Source of the DNA: Oscillospiraceae bacterium
Lineage (GTDB): Bacteria; Bacillota; Clostridia; Oscillospirales; CAG-272
Length of the DNA stretch: 64,000 nucleotides
Assembly: GCA_015063695.1 (NCBI GenBank)
Contig: SVTQ01000006.1
Coordinates: 8,718 to 72,717 of the forward strand
Direction of reading: 5' to 3'
The notes beneath the pieces were generated by a model. That model saw nothing but the letters and a program-made list of their open reading frames with translations. It did not search any database and had not been told where the DNA came from. The position numbers and the translations under genes were made by a program. Of this stretch, positions 22,198-63,257 are shown piece by piece. Within the stretch, counting starts at the first letter, position 1, and every line of letters begins with the position of its first letter.

Positions 22198-22413
22198 GAG
22201 ATATCGAAATGTTATCTCGAGAGTTATCAACGTCGTAAGACGTGTATATCATCAAGGCGATAGCCTTGCATATCATCAAAGCAATGCTTTGTATATCATC
22301 ACTTGCGAAAGCTTTAGATACACGCCAAGGTGTGATGAGATACAACAGCGGCAATGCCGCTGTTGATGATATGCACGCTGTGCGTGATGATATGCCACCT
22401 GCTTCGCAAGTGG
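22198..22413. repeat. nested palindromic motif/hairpin array A (G[T/C]ATATCATCA x3 direct, TGATGA[T/G]AT[A/G]C x3 inverted)
   Basis: Direct copies lie at 22244-54, 22268-78 and 22291-301. Inverted copies lie at 22333-43, 22364-74 and 22385-95. Unique mini-hairpins sit between copies: AAGGC-GATA-GCCTT, AAAGC-AAT-GCTTT, AACAGCGGC-AAT-GCCGCTGTT and CACGC-TGT-GCGTG. Confidence 0.8.
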
Positions 22414-22449
22414 ATAAAAAATCCCATTCTCTTTCGAGAATGGGATTTT
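22414..22449 (-). terminator. terminator directly after tRNA-Arg
   Basis: AAAAATCCCATTCTC-TTTC-GAGAATGGGATTTTT hairpin followed by a T-run on the minus strand. Confidence 0.8.
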
Positions 22450-22525
22450 TGGCGCGCCCTGCAGGATTCGAACCTGCGGCCTACCGGTTCGTAGCCGGGC
22501 ACTCTATCCACTGAGCTAAGGGCGC
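22450..22525 (-). tRNA. tRNA-Arg (anticodon ACG), CCA encoded
   Basis: The reverse complement GCGCCCTTAGCTCAGTGGATAGAGTGCCCGGCTACGAACCGGTAGGCCGCAGGTTCGAATCCTGCAGGGCGCGCCA folds as a cloverleaf. It has a 7-bp acceptor stem, anticodon loop CTACGAA and T-loop GGTTCGAATCC. Confidence 0.9.
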
Positions 22526-41883: not shown

Positions 41884-42537
41884 TTATATGAAAATTACTT
41901 CGTACCCGTCGAAACATCTCAGAAAGTTAGTGATTAATTCTTGAACATATTTTTCACCGTTTTTATAGATGCCGTTGTCTTCGGCATCTTTGAGTCCGAG
42001 GGCTTCCATTTCTGTTACAAGCTGTTTGTATTGACTAAAATCTATGGGATTTAAAATATTATTGTCTTCAATACATTCGACGGTTTCCCATATAATATAG
42101 TTATCATTCACGGCTATTTCCGGCAGAGCAATGTAAATCTTGCAACTATCGTTATCAACAACCGGATTGATTTCAGAAAGATCATATCCAACCTTAACAA
42201 TACCTTTACACTTGAGTGTTGTGTTGTTAGTTGTTCCGGGAACGGGGATATCATCAAGAAAATATCTGGTGTAGTCAGCACTCTTTGTCACTTCATACTC
42301 TGATGCATATGTAGAAAGTTCACTGATTTTAACAAGTTCACTGTTAATCTCTTCAATCGTAATTACCCTTTTTTCTTGTTCACCGGGGAGTTTTAGGTTA
42401 TCGCTATTTGATGTATTGTCTACGATTTCGGCATCGGGCAACTGATTAATGCCTGCAAAATATCCACCTACAAAGGTTAGACCGATTACTAGGATTGATG
42501 ATATGATAACGGTTAATGGTTTTCTGATTTCTTTCAT
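41884..42537 (-). CDS. DUF4230-like membrane-anchored protein
   Basis: N-terminal TM LTVIISSILVIGLTFVGGYFA. The pattern ELSTYASEYEVT...KGIVKVGYDLSEI...IYIALPEIAVND matches what I recall of DUF4230. SD is TAGGAGGGA. Confidence 0.55.
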   Translation of the reverse strand: MKEIRKPLTVIISSILVIGLTFVGGYFAGINQLPDAEIVDNTSNSDNLKLPGEQEKRVITIEEINSELVKISELSTYASEYEVTKSADYTRYFLDDIPVPGTTNNTTLKCKGIVKVGYDLSEINPVVDNDSCKIYIALPEIAVNDNYIIWETVECIEDNNILNPIDFSQYKQLVTEMEALGLKDAEDNGIYKNGEKYVQELITNFLRCFDGYEVIFI

Positions 42538-42550
42538 TTTATCCCTCCTA

Positions 42551-42649
42551 TTAGAACCATGCGGTAATCAACACAACAAGGTAAAAGACTGCCACAAGGC
42601 TTCCAATACCTCCAATGATACCCAACAATGTACTTCCTGCTTTTTTCAT
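42551..42649 (-). CDS. 32-aa hydrophobic micro-protein (MKKAGSTLLGIIGGIGSLVAVFYLVVLITAWF)
   Basis: Not in the ORF track because it is too short. ATG 42649 lies 7 nt after AAAGGAGAA. The stop is 13 nt before the DUF4230 start. It contains a single predicted TM helix. Confidence 0.4.
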   Translation of the reverse strand: MKKAGSTLLGIIGGIGSLVAVFYLVVLITAWF

Positions 42650-42776
42650 AACATTTTCTCCTTTGAATTTTTTCGTAAACATCTTTTGTTTACACTTATA
42701 TTGTAATTCTTTTGTCGAACTTAATAAATCATTGTATCAGCAAAATAAGATTATGTATTTCATCTGTTTTTTCAAA

Positions 42777-42992
42777 TTAAGCGACATACGAGAGAACCGA
42801 ATCAAGCATACAAGTAACCAACTCTTTTTCGAGGTCAACCTTTTTAATCGTTAACTGAACTCGGTCACCTTTCTTACCGCACCCATAATAGAAAACAACT
42901 TTATCGGTTTCATCATCCAGAACATAACAACCATGACGATTACAGCCGATAACTTCGCCAACTAAAGTGTTGAATTTCTCGAACATATCCAT
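42777..42992 (-). CDS. 71-aa hypothetical protein, possible S1/OB-fold
   Basis: ATG 42992 lies 8 nt after AAAGGAG. VGEVIGCNRHGCYVLDDETDKVVFYYGCGKKGDRVQLTIKKVD loosely follows the S1-domain pattern. Confidence 0.4.
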   Translation of the reverse strand: MDMFEKFNTLVGEVIGCNRHGCYVLDDETDKVVFYYGCGKKGDRVQLTIKKVDLEKELVTCMLDSVLSYVA

Positions 42993-43005
42993 TTTGTATA
43001 CTCCT

Positions 43006-43131
43006 TTAAGCTTTTTCATTCTTTGTTTTATCGATTATTTTAACTTCAATCCCAACTTGTTTAGCAATTTCAGGATTTTTCTTTTGCTTTTCAAGCAATC
43101 GCAAAGCCAGGATTCTTTCCCTTACATTCAA
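43006..43131 (-). CDS. 41-aa basic micro-protein (MNVRERILALRLLEKQKKNPEIAKQVGIEVKIIDKTKNEKA)
   Basis: Not in the ORF track. TTG 43131 lies 7 nt after GGAGG. The stop is 13 nt before the start of the next gene. Confidence 0.3.
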   Translation of the reverse strand: MNVRERILALRLLEKQKKNPEIAKQVGIEVKIIDKTKNEKA

Positions 43132-43252
43132 AAGAACCACCTCCGGTTTATTTTTCTGCAATTCCTGATTGCATAATTATCATACCACACGTGCAATTAA
43201 AGAAAAATCATCGTATCGGCAAATTAAACGGCATTATTTGTGTTGCATGAGC

Positions 43253-43295
43253 AAATTAAAAACGGCGTTTAGGATTTTGAATCTTAAACGCTGTT
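43253..43295 (-). terminator. terminator after the XRE-like gene
   Basis: AACGGCGTTTAG / CTTAAACGCTGTT stem flanked by A- and T-runs. Confidence 0.55.
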
Positions 43296-43308
43296 TTTTG
43301 GTATGTAT

Positions 43309-43818
43309 TTAGTTGTTTTCGCTGCCAAGACGTTTTGCTTTTTCACACCATAGTTGGATCGCTTCAACCGTCATTGATATTTTTTCAAGCTCTTCAAGAA
43401 TTTTATCGAGGTCGGGTATTTCCGTGTCATCCACTCGACCATCTGCAAGAATTTCCATCAATCGCGTTTTCTTGGCATTGACGGACTCCAAAGATATAGC
43501 CATATTTACAAGAATTTCGTGAACGTTGTCTTTATAGATTACTTCCGGTGCATCTATTGCGCCAATATCACATTGATGGCAACAATAGTAATTTCTAAGC
43601 TCGGGTTTATTGTACACTTTGGAAAGAGCAACAATATCTTCTGGTTGAATTTTAATAGACTCATCTTCGATTTTAACAAGTTTGTATTTGTCTACATAAC
43701 CATATCTGCCGTTTTCGATTTTTAAGATTTCGTCTGCAGCCTTTTCTCGACTCCATCCGAGTGCATCACGAGCTTCTTGATATACGTTTTTGTTTTCCTT
43801 TGTTGATTTTCTTCCCAT
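43309..43818 (-). CDS. XRE-like HTH transcriptional regulator with Cys-containing central region
   Basis: KENKNVYQEARDALGWSREKAADEI is HTH-like. NYYCCHQCDIG... is followed by a C-terminal helical region. It resembles a roughly 170-aa Clostridia XRE family from memory. Confidence 0.5.
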   Translation of the reverse strand: MGRKSTKENKNVYQEARDALGWSREKAADEILKIENGRYGYVDKYKLVKIEDESIKIQPEDIVALSKVYNKPELRNYYCCHQCDIGAIDAPEVIYKDNVHEILVNMAISLESVNAKKTRLMEILADGRVDDTEIPDLDKILEELEKISMTVEAIQLWCEKAKRLGSENN

Positions 43819-43837
43819 AATCCATAAACTCCCTACA

Positions 43838-44959
43838 TTATTTTTTGGGTTTGTTCTTTTTAAGTGTGTGATACTTTATGACAACTTCATCATCCTGTCT
43901 ATAATCTTTGCCTTTATAAAATTCGTCTTCGTCATTGATCGTTATGCTTTCAATTTCGCCATCAGAGGCAAACCAGCCAAGTACAACATCATATATTGGC
44001 TCTAACGATATGTTAACAAAACCTGCTTCTTGAAACTGATTTTGAACTTCAAGGTAATTTCGTTTATCAATTTCATCAGAAGAAAAAGGAGACGATACAG
44101 GTGCGATTGAATGATATCGTACTATTATTTTCGTATCATAAGGGGATTTTTTATCCTTGGTAAAATCGTTGTCATCTTTTATCTTAACTTCAAACACAAC
44201 ATTTTCTAACTCGGCTTGTTCAAGTGTTAAATCCTCAGCCGCCGCAGTTAAAACATTAGTAAATCCTGCATTTTTGAGCTTATCTTCAACCACTTCAAAT
44301 GATAAGCCAACAAGCATCTCGTCATTGTATCCTATCGGAATTAACTTGCTGTATTGATAATATCCTATAAGTGTTAGAATTCCAAGAAGCACTATACAAA
44401 CAAATACGGCAATACCCTTCCTGTGTTTTTTGCAAAACTGTTTTCTTTTTTTCTGTTTTGTAAGCTTTTTTTGATTTTTGTATTGCCTTTTTTGCTGTTC
44501 TTCTTTTTGTCTTTCTTTTTCAATTCGTTTATTTTCTTTGATTGTATCTATATGAGGTTCTAGTTTTTCATAGATTAAATGGTTTAGTTTTTGAGGGATA
44601 TCAGAATCATAATTCTCACTTTTCAGATAGTATTTCCCGGTTAATTTTCCATAATCATTGAAGTCTAGAATAAAGTCCCATAATGAAAGACCGCTTACAG
44701 ATGAAACTGTTACATATATTGCCAAACCATCAATTTCTACGTTTTCGATTCTTTTTATTTTTCTTGTACAGGAAAACACAATTTCATCAAATTCTTCTTT
44801 GCTTAATCCTTCGTCAAAGTTATATACACACGATTTTCGTTTGTTTTCTTTTTGAATTTTTATTTCTTCTTCTTGTCTTGCTTTCTCATTGGATTCTTTG
44901 ATTTTATGTATTCCGTAGAGAGACAGTCCGCCTAAGAACAAATAACTAAAAAAGCCCAT
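43838..44959 (-). CDS. two-TM membrane protein with Lys-rich coiled coil and two PASTA-like C-terminal modules
   Basis: ATG 44959 preferred over GTG 44971, which abuts the SD. TMs are FFSYLFLGGLSLYG and IAVFVCIVLLGILTLIGYY. Repeats LVGLSFEVVEDKLKNAGFTNV and YLEVQNQFQEAGFVNISL are present. Confidence 0.45.
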   Translation of the reverse strand: MGFFSYLFLGGLSLYGIHKIKESNEKARQEEEIKIQKENKRKSCVYNFDEGLSKEEFDEIVFSCTRKIKRIENVEIDGLAIYVTVSSVSGLSLWDFILDFNDYGKLTGKYYLKSENYDSDIPQKLNHLIYEKLEPHIDTIKENKRIEKERQKEEQQKRQYKNQKKLTKQKKRKQFCKKHRKGIAVFVCIVLLGILTLIGYYQYSKLIPIGYNDEMLVGLSFEVVEDKLKNAGFTNVLTAAAEDLTLEQAELENVVFEVKIKDDNDFTKDKKSPYDTKIIVRYHSIAPVSSPFSSDEIDKRNYLEVQNQFQEAGFVNISLEPIYDVVLGWFASDGEIESITINDEDEFYKGKDYRQDDEVVIKYHTLKKNKPKK

Positions 44960-44996
44960 GCAACAGTTCACCTCCTCTACCTTTGTAATCTTTTTA

Positions 44997-45025
44997 ATTA
45001 TATCATATTTCTAAAAATATGACAA
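44997..45025 (-). promoter_or_regulatory. near-consensus sigma-A promoter for the membrane-protein/XRE operon
   Basis: On the minus strand: TTGTCA (45025-20), a 17-nt spacer, then TATAAT (45002-44997). Confidence 0.6.
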
Positions 45026-45114
45026 GATATAACAATGATTGAAAGAAGAAAAGCCTCTCTGCATATCAAACACAAGGAAGCTTTTCGATTAATTTAGACA
45101 TAAAATTCTCCTCG

Positions 45115-45411
45115 TTATTTACCTTCTTTGATAATCCGCCATATTGATCTTTCGGAATAATTGTATTTTTGCGCGAGTTGGGGCACATTTTTACCGTTAT
45201 ATTCCTTAAGAATAGCTTTGTGGGTATATTCTTTTGAGAAAAGTCTGTTTGGAAATGATACTTGTGTGCCGTGAAATAAGTTGAATATTGCAATAGTTTT
45301 TTCAATGCCAATCTCATCTGCAATTTCACGATACACTTCATTAAGTCCGTTAAAATCATCTCCCAAAAGTTCCACATCCCATTTTTTCATTAATATTTCT
45401 TTTATCGACAT
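45115..45411 (-). CDS. Mor-family / CD3324-like small HTH transcription activator
   Basis: ATG 45411 after AGGAG. FHGTQVSFPNRLF...ILKEYNGKNVPQLAQKYNYSERSIWRII matches the Mor C-terminal HTH pattern. Confidence 0.55.
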   Translation of the reverse strand: MSIKEILMKKWDVELLGDDFNGLNEVYREIADEIGIEKTIAIFNLFHGTQVSFPNRLFSKEYTHKAILKEYNGKNVPQLAQKYNYSERSIWRIIKEGK

Positions 45412-45493
45412 AATACCACTCCTGTAACGACATAACAAATGACATTGTCTTTGCATTTGGCAGTATTATTTAGAAAAGTTGATTTTTTGCTCA

Positions 45494-45540
45494 TAAAAAA
45501 GCTCCTTTCCGAACAGAAAGCATTTGTTCGGAAAAGAGCT
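45494..45540 (-). terminator. terminator after tcdA
   Basis: AGCTCCTTTCCGAACA / TGTTCGGAAAAGAGCT stem with a T-run on the minus strand. Confidence 0.7.
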
Positions 45541-45615
45541 TGGAATTTTCGCGAATGATAAAAAGTATATTCGAAAGTAAAAACGGCATACGATATTTAA
45601 AATACATGTTTACAA

Positions 45616-46332
45616 TTATTTCTTGCAAAGATCCTTTATTATTTCTCCGCCTATCATAAGACCTGCAACGGAGGGAACAAAGGAAATACTTGCAGGAGTT
45701 GCCCGTCTTCCGGGCGTGTTTTCGCACTCTCCCGTACTTATGGGGGTGATGGGCTCTTCCTTGGAGTAAAGTACCTTCAGCTTGTATATACCTCTCGCCT
45801 TCAGCTCCCGTCTCATGACACGGGCAAGAGGGCAAACGGAGGTCTTTGAAATATCTGTGATCTCAAACATTTCGGGATGCAGCTTGTTTCCCGTACCCAT
45901 AGAAGAAATAATGGGAACACCTGCATCGTGACAGGTCTTTATAAGAAGAAGCTTGCTTGTGACGGAGTCAATGGCATCGCAAACGTAGTCGAACTGTGTA
46001 AGGTCGATCTTATCCGCGGTTTCAGCTCCGTAAAACATAACCATTGACTCGGCAGTGCAGTTTGGATTGATGTCAAGAATTCTTTCCTTCTGAACTTCTG
46101 CTTTAGGTCTTCCTACAGTGGATGAGGTCGCGATTATCTGTCTGTTTATGTTGGAAACGGAAACCTCGTCTGCATCAATAACAGTTATTTTCCCGACTCC
46201 CGCACGGGCAAGAGCCTCAATTGTGTAGGAACCGACACCGCCGCAGCCGAAAACCGCAACGGAAGAGCTTTTCAGCTTTTCAACCGCCTCGTCTCCTATA
46301 AGCATCCGTGTCCTTGTGTAAATATCTTCCAT
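45616..46332 (-). CDS. tcdA: tRNA threonylcarbamoyladenosine dehydratase (ThiF/E1-like)
   Basis: VAVFGCGGVGSYTIEALARAGVGKITVIDADEVSVSNINRQI. 238 aa. Confidence 0.8.
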   Translation of the reverse strand: MEDIYTRTRMLIGDEAVEKLKSSSVAVFGCGGVGSYTIEALARAGVGKITVIDADEVSVSNINRQIIATSSTVGRPKAEVQKERILDINPNCTAESMVMFYGAETADKIDLTQFDYVCDAIDSVTSKLLLIKTCHDAGVPIISSMGTGNKLHPEMFEITDISKTSVCPLARVMRRELKARGIYKLKVLYSKEEPITPISTGECENTPGRRATPASISFVPSVAGLMIGGEIIKDLCKK

Positions 46333-58147: not shown

Positions 58148-58453
58148 CTAAAAAATTCCTTTGTTGTATTTTAGTTGAACTATTACAATGCAGACGATCG
58201 CGAAAAGCATCCCTGCCGAAAGAATGGTAACTGATAAGATCATCCTGTTCAAAAGCGACAGGATACCGCTTAAAACAGCCGTTGGAACGAAAAGGGAAAG
58301 AGCCTTGCCGAAAGCCCTGCCGTAAGCGGCCTTGTCCGTAACCTTTTCCTGATGATAAGAGTGGATAAGCTCGGTCTTACCTCTGTAAATTGCTATGCTT
58401 ACGATAAGAAAGAGCAAAGCGGCGGAAAACATGATAACAGAATAGATGATCAT
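58148..58453 (-). CDS. small three-TM membrane protein (DUF3784-like)
   Basis: 101 aa with hydrophobic segments. YRGKTELIHSYHQEKV resembles DUF3784 proteins. Confidence 0.4.
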   Translation of the reverse strand: MIIYSVIMFSAALLFLIVSIAIYRGKTELIHSYHQEKVTDKAAYGRAFGKALSLFVPTAVLSGILSLLNRMILSVTILSAGMLFAIVCIVIVQLKYNKGIF

Positions 58454-58485
58454 TGTCTTTTACAGGATTAGTTCTTGTGACATTT

Positions 58486-58845
58486 TTATGATTGTACCGC
58501 TTTTTTCTTCGCGGTGGTAACTGATGCAATCAATTTTCTTCTTATTGTACCGCATTTATTGATCAGGTTTTTATATGTATAATCATTGATTTTCTCTTTG
58601 CGTAACAACAATTCCAACCAATACTCTGTTTCAAAGCTTTCTTTTAATGCAATTTCTAATTTGTTTATAAAATCTGCGGTGCTTTGAGCATACTTTGCTT
58701 CGTGGAGATTTGCTCCAATAGAGGAAGAACATCTTAGTAGTTGATTTACATAAACGGAACAACCCTTGATATTATCGCAAATATCAGAAACTTCTATAGC
58801 AAAGTTTATTGTTTGTTCTCTCAATGTGTTTTTGTAATTTTCCAT
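58486..58845 (-). CDS. four-helix-bundle protein (23S rRNA intervening-sequence protein family)
   Basis: ATG 58845 after AGGAGA. QLLRCSSSIGANLHEAKYAQSTADFINKLEIALKESFETEYWLELL is the family signature. Confidence 0.8.
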   Translation of the reverse strand: MENYKNTLREQTINFAIEVSDICDNIKGCSVYVNQLLRCSSSIGANLHEAKYAQSTADFINKLEIALKESFETEYWLELLLRKEKINDYTYKNLINKCGTIRRKLIASVTTAKKKAVQS

Positions 58846-58861
58846 AATGTAATCTCCTATG

Positions 58862-59037
58862 TCGATATACACGCTACGCGTGTTCGATATATTTTGCTTC
58901 GCAAAATTCGATATAAACTCACTCTGTTCGTTTTCGATATGATATAAATCTCGTTTCCGAAGGAAACATATCGAGTGCTTTGGCACATATCGAATCCGTC
59001 AGGATATATCGAAAATCTCGCAAGAGATTTATATCGA
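58862..59037. repeat. nested palindromic motif/hairpin array B (TTCGATAT x4 direct, ATATCGAA x4 inverted)
   Basis: Direct copies lie at 58862-69, 58883-92, 58907-16 and 58933-41. Inverted copies lie at 58967-74, 58987-95, 59004-13 and 59030-37. The central hairpin is GTTTCC-GAA-GGAAAC (58953-67). Unique mini-hairpins sit between copies: CACGC-TAC-GCGTG, TTTTGC-TTC-GCAAAA, GTGC-TTTG-GCAC, ATCC-GTCA-GGAT and AAATCTC-GCAA-GAGATTT. Confidence 0.85.
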
Positions 59038-60183
59038 TGAGTGGTCGATGCGACATAGTCGCACGACACACTCTATATGGTTTGTGTGAGGGAACATGTC
59101 AAAGGGATGAATTGCCTTCACTTTATAAACCTTTTTGAGAAAATCAAGGTCCCTTGCAAGAGTGTCGGGATTGCAGGACACGTAAACTATTTTGCGAGGC
59201 GCAAGGGAAATAAGCTTAGAGAGAAAGTTCTTGTCACAGCCTGCACGGGGCGGGTCAACGAAAACAGTGTCGTACTTTTCGCCCTTTGCGGCGGCATTGT
59301 TTATGAATTTGGTGGTATCCGCGGTGAAAAAGCGAATATTGGAAACTCCCGAAAGACGGGCGTTTTCTTTGGCATCGGCAGTTGAAGATTTGTTTACCTC
59401 AACGGCATCCACCGTCTTTGCATTTTTGGCGGCAATTATTCCGATAGTGCCGATTCCCGAGTAAGCATCAAGAATTCTTTCTTTTCCTGAAAGACCCGCA
59501 AGCTTAATGGCACAGCTGTAAAGACGTTCTGTCTGAACGGGATTTATCTGATAGAAGGAGCGGGCAGAAATTCTGAAGGTGCAACCGCAAAGAACGTCGG
59601 TTATATATCCTTCTCCGTAAAGAACTCTTTCCTTGTCTGTAAGCCAAAGCGGAGTGTCCGTGTCGTTTACGTTGTGAATGACGGTGGTTATGGAAGGAAA
59701 ACGCTCTGTAAGCAGAGAAACGAACTGCCTTTCTTTTGGAAACGCGGCGGAACTGCTGACGATAACGACCATGACCTCGCCCGTGGCAAAGCCTTCTCTC
59801 ACAAGAATGTGGCGGAGAAATCCCTTGCCCGTCGCGGCATTGAAGGGCTGAATTTTCAGCTCGTTTGCGATGTTTATAACAACGCGGATTATCTCGCTTG
59901 CCGTCTTTGTTTCTATGGCGCAAAAATCGCACTTGACCGCAGTTCCGCTTGAGGATTTGTAAATGCCCGAAACTGCTTTTCCGCCTTGAGGGAAAACGAT
60001 TGCCTGAGCCTTGTTTCTGTAGCCCTCGGTGTTTTCCATGGGGACGATTTCGTGGACGTGGCAAAAACGTCCCAGTGTCTTGATTATTCGGCTCATTTTA
60101 TAGGAGAGCTGCTCTTTGTATGACAAGTTGCGAAGCTGACATGCTCCGCATTTTTTAAAGTATTTGCATCCGCCCTTTTCCAT
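59029..60183 (-). CDS. rlmD: RumA/RlmD-type 23S rRNA (uracil-5)-methyltransferase
   Basis: N-terminal Fe-S cysteines CKYFKKCGACQLRNLSY, SAM site LDAYSGIGTIG, VDPPRAG and catalytic YVSCNP. Confidence 0.85.
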   Translation of the reverse strand: MEKGGCKYFKKCGACQLRNLSYKEQLSYKMSRIIKTLGRFCHVHEIVPMENTEGYRNKAQAIVFPQGGKAVSGIYKSSSGTAVKCDFCAIETKTASEIIRVVINIANELKIQPFNAATGKGFLRHILVREGFATGEVMVVIVSSSAAFPKERQFVSLLTERFPSITTVIHNVNDTDTPLWLTDKERVLYGEGYITDVLCGCTFRISARSFYQINPVQTERLYSCAIKLAGLSGKERILDAYSGIGTIGIIAAKNAKTVDAVEVNKSSTADAKENARLSGVSNIRFFTADTTKFINNAAAKGEKYDTVFVDPPRAGCDKNFLSKLISLAPRKIVYVSCNPDTLARDLDFLKKVYKVKAIHPFDMFPHTNHIECVVRLCRIDHSSI

Positions 60184-62684: not shown

Positions 62685-63068
62685 CACGTTCCCCTTTTCG
62701 GTTACTTCACTTCACTGTCATCCTGAGCGTAGTCGAAGGATCTTGATATGAACGTTTTGTGTTGTAATATCGTCACGGGTATTTTACGTGCGAGGATTCT
62801 TCGATTTCGCGCCTTGGGCGCTTCACTCAGAATGACATAACGGGTGTGATCGCGCGCCTGTTGTTCACGTTCCCTTTTTCGGTTACTTCACTTCACTGTC
62901 ATCCTGAGCGTAGTCGAAGGATCTTGGTATGAACGTTTTGTGTTGTAATATCGTCACGGGTGTTTTACGTGCGAGGATTCTTCGATTTCGCGCCTTGGGC
63001 GCTTCACTCAGAATGACATAACGGGTGTGATCGCACGCCTGTTGTTCGCGTTCCCCTTTTTCGGTTAC
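62685..63068. repeat. 181-bp tandem direct repeat, 2.1 copies
   Basis: Unit starts are at 62685, 62866 and 63047. Copies 1 and 2 differ at only a handful of positions by eye. The third copy is truncated after CGGTTAC. Confidence 0.9.
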
Positions 63069-63257
63069 CGTAGGGCGACCATTGGTCGTCCGATTTACAC
63101 AAAAAACGCACTCTACTGCGAATGAGAAATGCAATGGACAGTCGAGGACACCTGTCCCTACAAATAATCAGCGAAATTTCCCGATGTGAACTTGTTTCAC
63201 ACGAAAACGACGATATCAATCGTAGGGGCGACCATTGGTCGTCCGTCGAATACAAAA
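63069..63257. repeat. three more GTAGGG-hairpin-CTACA/ATACA units
   Basis: CGTAGGGCGACCATTGGTCGTCCGATTTACACAAAAAA (63069-106), GGACAG...CTGTCCCTACAAA (63136-64) and CGTAGGGGCGACCATTGGTCGTCCGTCGAATACAAAAA (63221-57). Confidence 0.75.

Follow-up and report, generated by a model that had tools for sequence, protein, structure and literature searches.

A 176-bp comb of linker-joined hairpins, apparently of Gut-1-like design and part of an inserted PF05635 gene cassette, in an Oscillospiraceae genome

The window analysed here is a single stretch of 64,000 nucleotides from an Oscillospiraceae bacterium (contig SVTQ01000006.1). The feature under study, comb B, occupies 176 bp of it (58862-59037), between the stop of a gene for a RumA-like RNA methyltransferase and the start of a gene for a four-helix-bundle (4HB) protein. 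The gene-sized features at the locus are as follows.

59029 to 60183, minus strand: gene for a RumA-like (uracil-5) RNA methyltransferase (Pfam PF05958, E = 4.9e-29).
58454 to 59062, minus strand: apparent inserted cassette relative to the closest relative, delimited by global alignment and BLASTN against locus L469, and made up of a new rumA-like C-terminal tail, module L, module R, the 4HB gene and a 32-nt spacer.
58843 to 58858, minus strand: RBS AGGAG (58854-58) and ATG (58843-45) of the 4HB gene, read from the sequence, 16 nt after the last linker of the comb.
58486 to 58845, minus strand: 4HB gene, 119 aa, PF05635 "23S rRNA intervening sequence protein" (Pfam E = 3e-20).

According to frame analysis, the rumA-like frame runs through 395 open codons and ends at the first linker of the comb, its last codons being TCG ATA and its stop codon TAA (59029-59031) falling inside that linker. 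The 4HB translation begins MENYK. More than 6000 relatives of this protein exist, the closest solved structure is the uncharacterised protein PDB 2RLD (E = 5e-22), and a look-up of the exact sequence of the window's 4HB protein returned no record. We take the protein to be related to Avd, the accessory protein of DGRs, and to the "23S rRNA IVS protein". Downstream of comb B, the next gene continues on the same strand.

The heptamer TCGATAT stands on the plus strand at 58862, 58884, 58908 and 58934 and inverted at 58968, 58987, 59006 and 59031, which bears out the four direct and four inverted motifs reported in the preliminary description of this DNA. The whole window holds 20 copies against 7.45 expected, and eight of these are in comb B. 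The central hairpin GTTTCC-GAA-GGAAAC is likewise where that description had it, at 58953-58967, and no two spacer hairpins have a sequence in common. Its statement that almost every spacer is a hairpin is correct for six of the seven, in which 4-7 bp pair perfectly from the spacer ends inwards around a loop of 3-4 nt; the exception is the third one on the left (58915-58933), which has no more than a weak 4-bp stem and an 11-nt loop. In 20,000 shufflings of the spacers the mean number of hairpin spacers was 0.29, and none reached the observed six. The proposed comparison of folding energies with shuffled controls gave the same picture, since both strands fold better than their controls (minus strand, z = -3.5; plus strand, z = -5.35) and none of 200 dinucleotide shuffles was as good. 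The copy-specific flanking bases said to be shared by paired motif copies do exist; they carry little weight, because each flank (A/G or T/C) is merely the first or last base of a hairpin.

The comb was also said to be neither a terminator nor a simple inverted repeat, and we agree on both counts, from a terminator scan and from its composition of two separable modules (see below). A loose scan for intrinsic terminators flags the central hairpin only, whose tail AGAUUUAUAU is not a U tract, and a promoter scan found no convincing sigma-70 promoter inside comb B. A CRISPR array or the repeats of a type III antitoxin, which would have identical direct repeats of more than 20 nt with non-palindromic spacers or identical tandem units of about 36 nt, were considered and rejected: the repeat here has 7 nt, the spacers are palindromes of 10-19 nt and the right half is inverted.

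Read along the minus strand, on which both neighbouring genes lie, the comb and its edges have the following parts.

59050 to 59062, minus strand: possible extra hairpin h0, GCGAC-TAT-GTCGC, inside the rumA tail and just 5' of the first linker, read from the sequence.
58941 to 59039, minus strand: module L, a covariance-model match of 118 bits.
59031-37, 59006-12, 58987-93 and 58968-74, minus strand: the four linkers UCGAUAU of module L.
59013-30 (h1), 58994-59005 (h2), 58975-86 (h3) and 58953-67 (h4), minus strand: hairpins of module L, which covary in 27 homologues.
59024 to 59035, minus strand: 5' strand of the closing stem P0, GAUAUAAAUCUC, which includes the UAA stop, overlaps the 5' arm of h1 and is complementary to 58941-52 at 12 of 12 positions.
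58941 to 58952, minus strand: 3' strand of P0, GAGAUUUAUAUC, a second copy of the 3' arm of h1.
58862 to 58940, minus strand: module R, an inverted array running up to the RBS of the 4HB gene.
58934-40, 58908-14, 58884-90 and 58862-68, minus strand: the four linkers AUAUCGA of module R.
58891-58907 and 58869-58883, minus strand: hairpins of module R, read from the sequence and by the shuffle test.
58915-33, minus strand: weakly structured spacer of module R, about 17-19 nt.

The first linker of module L stands in the context (C-A)-K-C-G-A-U-A-U-R-A and is followed by h1, a 7-bp stem of x and x'. A second copy of x' together with AUAUC comes after the fourth hairpin, and module L ends with this 3' strand of P0. 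The first linker and x can thus pair either locally, as h1, or distally, as P0 (10-12 bp). In the window, the partner segment is the 12 nt beside the central hairpin (58941-52), which complement the first linker and the 5' arm of h1 perfectly; this second element of the spacer ahead of the centre is missing from the preliminary description. For the window's module L, the P0 state is computed at -30.1 kcal/mol against -18.3 kcal/mol for an open string of hairpins, so P0 is the favoured state. A hairpin at the position equivalent to h0, before the first linker, was seen in seven other loci (L345, L183, L201, L036, L237, L136 and L144).

To collect homologues, metagenomes were scanned for the pattern, which gave the first one, L189. 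Scans of metagenome and viral collections with the linker list mostly satellites such as L179; these matches were filtered by hairpin content, and counts from them are counts among the matches listed. Further copies came from contigs encoding close relatives of the 4HB protein, from rumA loci and from viral contigs. Because MAFFT alignments of the modules mis-register the hairpins, a covariance model was built from three sequences of equal length (A3 to R1), and the rest were aligned to it by Infernal. The model finds at least 27 homologues of module L at E < 1e-6, with 42-127 bits, in metagenomic and phage contigs. Right halves match it at 20-38 bits, exclusively on the opposite strand; in the window itself, the module R region was matched on the plus strand only, in one match of 34.8 bits spanning 58882-59035.

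Among the 27 homologues, 98.3% of 526 paired cells are complementary, compared with 71% in shuffles and 22-56% with slid partners, the first percentage being somewhat inflated since the alignment was fitted to the model. Double-sided changes occur in 20 of the 21 stem pairs, and compensatory cells number 143, against 35 in shuffles. Across the family, 73 of 87 distinct spacers have a stem of at least 4 bp, where 3.7 were expected. In 19 of 26 modules, at least 10 of the 12 positions of P0 are complementary, and the stem covaries with x; its variants include AAAUCAU/GUGAUUU, AAAUCCC/GGGAUUU, ACAUUCC/GGAAUG and UCGCCUG/CAGGCGA, and there are others. In L183, a compensated change falls inside the linker itself, with GAGAU paired with AUCUC. 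The search of relatives and the covariance model suggested in the preliminary description have thus turned up 27 L modules with covarying stems.

It is also evident that sequence and structure are conserved in different parts of the comb. In L189, the neighbouring 4HB protein is only 65% identical to that of the window, and all eight linkers are unchanged, while every hairpin is different yet pairs. The earlier proposal of selection on structure and not on sequence therefore describes the hairpins, to which the pairing and the double-sided changes above belong, and fails for the strictly conserved linkers; eight identical linkers beside a protein so diverged indicate selection on sequence as well. 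Linker invariance is partly a sampling effect, because some of the loci were collected by means of the linker itself, and it is confirmed independently by five loci found through their proteins (L201, L205, L334, L341 and L345). The proposed rod of four nested linker-to-linker helices fares less well. It has no covariation behind it, and the covarying P0 closes the left half on itself, which is incompatible with the full rod. Since the linkers never vary, linker-to-linker pairing is beyond the reach of a covariation test, and the rod is at most a possible fold. Growth by accretion, with each hairpin a separate insertion that duplicates the linker, or by a CRISPR-like mechanism, was rejected, as unit number, order and size and also P0 are conserved across diverged copies.

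The preliminary description could assign the comb to no named repeat or RNA family. A relation was found to Gut-1 (RF01706), a candidate RNA supported by covariation and known solely from human-gut reads (Weinberg et al. 2010, PMC2864571). At Rfam gathering thresholds, the window holds only a tRNA. The Gut-1 model scores 17.8 bits in the window (plus strand, module R) and 29-34 bits in related L combs (maximum 33.7), and its gathering score of 50 bits is reached by none of the combs scored. In the cmscan alignment, every UCGAUAU nevertheless lines up with a GUGAAAU linker of the model, and the hairpins with its three hairpins. Five Gut-1 seed rows were examined, and two carry a P0 pair and an inverted R array in their flanks; in seed members with GUGAUAU linkers, the unmodelled flanks hold the P0 partner and an inverted AUAUCAC array. 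Both families have at least three short covarying hairpins closed by C-G and a conserved 7-nt linker containing GA(U/A)AU, and both come from gut or rumen metagenomes of Firmicutes type. They differ in the linker, which is UCGAUAU or GCGAUAU in the combs and GUGAAAU or GUGAUAU in Gut-1. The published description of Gut-1 holds neither the inverted partner module, the P0 closure and the stop in the first linker nor the PF05635 link, the presence in phages and the filled/empty polymorphism. In the literature searched for the linker sequences, for PF05635 and for clostridial REPs, Weinberg et al. (2010) was the one relevant paper. Given the different linker and the sub-threshold scores, we regard the comb as a new linker variant of the Gut-1 design, a design that appears to be larger than the published motif.

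A k-mer scan revealed a second comb in the window, so that the 64 kb hold two.

22225 to 22412 (about), strand not assigned: comb A, flanked by a tRNA gene and its terminator on one side and by a GNAT gene on the other.

Its linkers read GAUGAUAU(G/A)C, that is, TGATGATAT(G/A)C and the complement, and its spacers are again hairpins. Its halves are ordered R then L, with a closing pair of 10 bp (22300-09 with 22403-12), and the Gut-1 model gives it 15.1 bits. The same linker occurs five times, once more with hairpin spacers, in a rumen phage contig (L386), so that the design is general and the linker defines a subfamily. One Gut-1 seed member follows a tRNA and terminator, as comb A does. An AGTGAAG array at 62.7-63.0 kb was considered as a third comb and proved to be a tandem repeat of about 181 bp.

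Comparison with syntenic loci, chosen as the best relatives of the window's methyltransferase, indicates how comb B came to its position. L469 has a rumA-like protein of 95% identity and flanks of 91.5% identity, and it has neither the comb nor the 4HB gene. The two loci have the same gene order (radical-SAM, C39 peptidase, rumA, DUF3784, a 479-aa gene and GH94), and in L469 the ATG of DUF3784 follows the rumA stop by 4 nt. Global alignment and BLASTN place 609 bp of the window (59062..58454) where L469 has 29 bp; the segment is likewise absent from L471 (74% identical). By these alignments, the comb and the PF05635 4HB gene evidently form an inserted cassette of about 610 bp between the rumA-like and DUF3784 genes. 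The exact left boundary within rumA is blurred, because the native and the cassette-encoded tails resemble each other. Neither a target-site duplication nor a mobility enzyme was found at the filled/empty junctions and the loci examined.

Moreover, near-identical cassettes lie beside distant host genes. The methyltransferases next to them in L334, L341, L345 and L201 are TRAM-containing paralogues only 31-39% identical to that of the window, whereas the 4HB proteins at these loci are 83-87% identical and the comb DNA is 84-85% identical between the window and L334, L341 and L345. Cassettes were also found behind the genes of a large serine recombinase (L335) and of an aminotransferase (L205). 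This pattern is typical of a unit that spreads horizontally and prefers the 3' ends of U5-methyltransferase genes. L022 shows this hotspot in a different form: on both sides of a 198-aa reading frame it has a copy of the rumA 3' end together with a comb whose linker is UGAAUUG. Most of the 80 rumA loci scanned have no comb, so the comb is not a conserved 3' element of rumA. An impression that many contigs break right after rumA was dropped, as several of the reading frames simply run off the contig.

The two halves of the comb are not bound to one arrangement. The order L-R-4HB is found in the window, L334, L341, L183 and L189, L-4HB in L201, R-4HB-L in L011 and L072, an L stub followed by R-4HB-L in the L205 group, L-R-4HB-L in L345/346 and L-R-4HB-DUF6994-L in L335. 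L-R or R-L without a 4HB gene occurs in L234, L237/L320, L226, L136, L118, L144 and L168; these combs sit in phage structural operons and in chromosomal intergenic regions, and modules in phage contigs are found at terminase/portal and scaffold/capsid gene junctions. Solo L or solo R modules are common. As the halves stand alone, in reversed order and on either side of a gene, they are separable modules and not one obligate palindrome, and the modules without any 4HB gene make the comb independent of that gene. The comb thus evidently consists of two modules of one Gut-1-like design, an invariant 7-nt linker (YCGAUAU) in alternation with short C-G-closed hairpins of free sequence. The stub in L205 is the window's module L minus the segment between the two x' copies. 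Comparison of close relatives shows entire hairpin units exchanged or doubled between unchanged linkers (window versus L334; an extra unit in L335). L118 carries at least eight modules in 11.6 kb of ordinary metabolic genes, and near-identical duplicates occur in L168 and L022. A MITE or other transposon with terminal inverted repeats was rejected, given the freedom of the halves to stand singly, in either order and before or after a gene, and given that the filled/empty junctions show no target-site duplication.

The first linker often coincides with the stop codon of an upstream gene. In 10-11 of 29 modules, a long upstream frame ends exactly where the final base of the first linker and the AA or GA after it make a stop codon. 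These frames have 116 to more than 470 codons, or from 75 if L168 is counted, and belong to at least seven unrelated gene families (rumA-like, serine recombinase, DUF6994, PFL-activating enzyme, MFS transporter, acyltransferase and a phage gene). In the same 29 modules, no long upstream frame enters the linker through the second frame, and about five enter through the third, several of them doubtful, without stopping at the linker. Host genes that have kept their own stop usually end 0-6 nt ahead of the linker (L205, L226, L072 and L341). With these phased stops, the element supplies the upstream gene with its last two or three codons (Ala/Ser-Ile) and its stop. As that stop is part of P0 and also sits at the base of h1, both helices would be opened by a ribosome terminating there, and we see in this the best argument for a role at the RNA level tied to translation termination.

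Other signatures are those of DNA. The 74 distinct stems comprise 408 Watson-Crick pairs, two G-T and two A-C; with two against two, the comparison of G-U with A-C gave no signal for assigning a strand. In the model alignment, G-U takes up 6 of 526 cells. On the linker-sense strand, the loops are closed by C-G and have T first in 55 of 66 and C last in 40 of 66; on the complement they read cGAAg, cGTCAg, cGCAg and similar (cGNAg). The cGNAg loop is the classic extra-stable DNA mini-hairpin, and Hirao and Yoshizawa reportedly found cGNAg and cGNNAg loops to be the most stable of DNA mini-hairpins. The loop bias goes with linker orientation, so that L and R show it as mirror images and it is not uniform on the transcribed strand. 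The near absence of G-U and the mirrored bias would fit a unit at the DNA level as well as an RNA, and appear to favour a unit also read as DNA, single-stranded or cruciform. The comb of L189 lies between two divergent sigma-70-like promoters (read by eye) and may therefore not be transcribed, which weakens a purely RNA role. For these reasons, the comb should not be filed simply as an sRNA.

As judged from sequence comparison, then, the comb has a conserved modular structure, insertion polymorphism, horizontal spread, stop donation and a competing helix pair. Its function would be that of an RNA insulator, a recombination site or both. With slightly better than even confidence, we propose that the comb is the structured non-coding arm, and the DNA/RNA junction element, of a mobile cassette made of comb and 4HB gene. 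At the DNA level, the repeated linker-hairpin units would be the substrate for cassette exchange, with L copies flanking R-4HB as direct repeats and hairpin units swapped or duplicated at the linkers; circular intermediates are suggested by the direct L repeats around R-4HB and by the circularly permuted orders. At the RNA level, read-through from the host operon would transcribe the comb, which would end the upstream frame and fold into a compact multi-hairpin body. This body may protect or define mRNA ends and keep the upstream stop near the start of the inserted gene. The cassette would thus be tolerated in an operon with little polar damage, between genes formerly coupled in translation (4 nt apart in L469). 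The attC cassettes of integrons and the T4-type PeSL mobile cassettes are comparable as small promoterless gene units with sites conserved in structure and variable in sequence, expressed by read-through from the host and, in permuted arrangements, suggestive of circular intermediates. The comb differs from them in having no integrase and no attC R/L boxes, in being bounded by an array of mini-hairpins and in replacing the last codons of the host gene.

A stand-alone non-coding RNA of the Gut-1 class, acting in trans or as a cis switch (h1 versus P0) on the 4HB gene and mobile only incidentally, seems unlikely to us. Gut-1 was itself classed as an RNA by covariation (Weinberg et al. 2010), the covariation here is strong, two mutually exclusive pairings engage one segment, and module L mostly stands in sense orientation directly after a reading frame with the stop inside P0. 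Such an RNA would be harder to reconcile with the scarcity of G-U and the mirrored loop bias described above, with unrelated flanking genes (phage capsid, transporters, tRNA, methyltransferase), with the divergent promoters around the L189 comb and with comb B having no promoter or terminator of its own that could be found.

The combs could instead be selfish palindromes of the REP/BIME kind, mobilised as single-stranded DNA by a RAYT or an IS200-type HUH enzyme encoded elsewhere, with the 4HB gene as passenger. REPs too are short palindromic units in direct and inverted clusters, intergenic or intercistronic near stop codons, lineage-specific, with many copies per genome, and able to act as DNA and as RNA; Liang and co-authors are said to have placed the REPs of E. 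coli outside genes and near stop codons in 2015. The combs match this with many copies per contig near gene ends (at least eight in L118, two in the window, stop overlap), near-identical duplicates, cGNAg and cGNNAg loops, modules outside genes and copies without the 4HB gene. They depart from it in what is conserved. REPs keep the palindrome and a GTAG foot, whereas the combs fix only the linker and leave the hairpins free, the 74 distinct ones having just the closing C-G pair and the loop bias in common. Furthermore, a comb module has a set architecture of four units and a closing stem, not an accreted one, and no RAYT (Y1 HUH) or TnpA gene was seen among the Pfam-scanned neighbours of the loci collected. 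We consider this origin improbable.

The strictly conserved heptamer, set in direct and inverted copies beside the 4HB start and, in L189, upstream of a promoter, might also suggest an operator or a centromere-like array of double-stranded DNA, its eight heptamers bound by a protein that is possibly the 4HB protein itself. A spacing of 17 to 27 bp gives no helical phasing, the selected hairpins would be useless on duplex DNA, combs occur without the 4HB gene, and we know of no sequence-specific DNA binding by PF05635 proteins; an operator is thus quite improbable.

A processing site for RNase III of the type of intervening sequences (IVS), at which L and R would pair in the transcript and be cut so that the 4HB message is excised or separated, has the name of PF05635 in its favour, and 23S rRNA intervening sequences with a PF05635 frame exist in Leptospira, Coxiella and others. 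The bracketing of the gene by complementary arrays in R-4HB-L (L205, L011 and L072) and the insertion into a conserved host gene region are further likenesses, and minimum-energy folds pair some L linkers with R linkers. The comb cassette is, however, located in a protein-coding operon and not in rRNA, both arrays of the window lie upstream of the gene, and linker-hairpin arrays take the place of one long simple stem. L:R pairing shows no covariation, solo L or R modules are common, and RNase III acts poorly on helices as short as 7-10 bp that are broken up by side hairpins. Processing of this kind is therefore very improbable. A chance cluster or an assembly artefact is refuted by the shuffle tests, by homologues in independent assemblies and by covariation.

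A further reading may be considered tentatively, which we regard as doubtful: that the comb and the PF05635 gene are an autonomous mobile element not yet described, with the arrays as recombination ends and the 4HB protein as sole dedicated factor, which inserts at the very 3' ends of conserved genes with a donated stop and could explain how PF05635 IVS elements entered 23S rRNA.

For annotation, the C-terminal residues of many genes in comb-bearing genomes are derived from the element, and gene calling takes frames of 157-188 aa that extend through combs for long 4HB forms. The host range of the cassette takes in Oscillospiraceae-type Clostridia of rumen and gut together with their phages. 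Gut-1, an orphan motif without context since 2010, gains an anatomy, with two modules in inverted orientation and a closing stem that covaries and is in competition with the first hairpin; its design also gains a behaviour (filled and empty sites, horizontal spread and phase-locking of stops) and a recurrent partner in PF05635. If the combs are indeed junction elements of a gene cassette, small genes could be slipped into operons by them without polar effects, and the origin and mobility of 23S rRNA intervening sequences would become testable.

The DUF3784 gene, which adjoins the insertion of the cassette formed by the comb and the 4HB (PF05635 four-helix-bundle) gene, is far more diverged between the window and L469, the syntenic relative without the cassette, than are the flanks on both sides (79% versus 91.5% nucleotide identity).
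58148-58453 in the window, 3651-3956 in L469: DUF3784 gene.

In a relative, the locus L201 (3001-3788), the 4HB gene and a 144-aa HNH endonuclease gene share a 4-nt overlap, and upstream of the 4HB gene there is only module L, the left half of a comb; the HNH gene is possibly a mobility gene linked to the cassette. In two further loci, L335 (3-2820) and L345 (467-2503), module L copies lie as direct repeats on either side of R-4HB (also R-4HB-DUF6994), R being the inverted right half, and the same MFS_2 transporter gene comes after both loci. The stop codon of a large serine recombinase gene in L335 falls inside the first linker.

In the protein database, many entries for the 4HB subfamily have a length of 157-188 aa, since the start of the frame is placed within the comb by gene callers; the GTG frame 58486..58986 of the window is one such case. 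Most subfamily copies come from contigs 0.5-2 kb in length, which fits the expectation for a repeat that interrupts assembly.

The window also bears a second comb and a tandem repeat.
22225-22412: comb A, with a GNAT gene on one side and, on the other, a tRNA gene and its terminator (22417-22525).
62701-63062, minus strand: a ~181-bp unit, present twice in tandem.
The linker of comb A is TGATGATAT(G/A)C, its halves are ordered R, then L, and its closing pair joins 22300-09 with 22403-12; the same linker array is found in a phage contig (L386, 8647-8740). The ~181-bp unit, which includes GTCATTCTGAGTGAAGCG...CGAAGAATC, lies in the spacer that separates a radical-SAM gene from a dockerin gene, close to GGGCGACCATTGGTCGTCC-type hairpins at ~63070-63092 and ~63222-63245, and belongs to a repeat family distinct from the combs. 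Separately, the G+C content of 42001-46000 is 35% versus 46% for the window, and this block may be acquired DNA.

The contig L118 (11.6 kb) has at least eight linker-hairpin modules, with linkers GCGATAT and TCGATAT, in intergenic regions among ordinary metabolic genes. One gene pair there is convergent; both of its members end in a sense-oriented module L of their own, and the two modules jointly look like an L-R comb. In L022 (5078-6420), a 198-aa reading frame to which no family was assigned is bracketed by two copies of a stretch made up of the 3' end of rumA, a comb whose linker is TGAATTG, and ~90 nt of downstream sequence. The rumA segment coding DMFPHTGHVE is present a third time, as a partial copy; a glyoxalase/bleomycin-resistance gene lies downstream of the duplication. 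These duplications look like repeated insertion at one hotspot.
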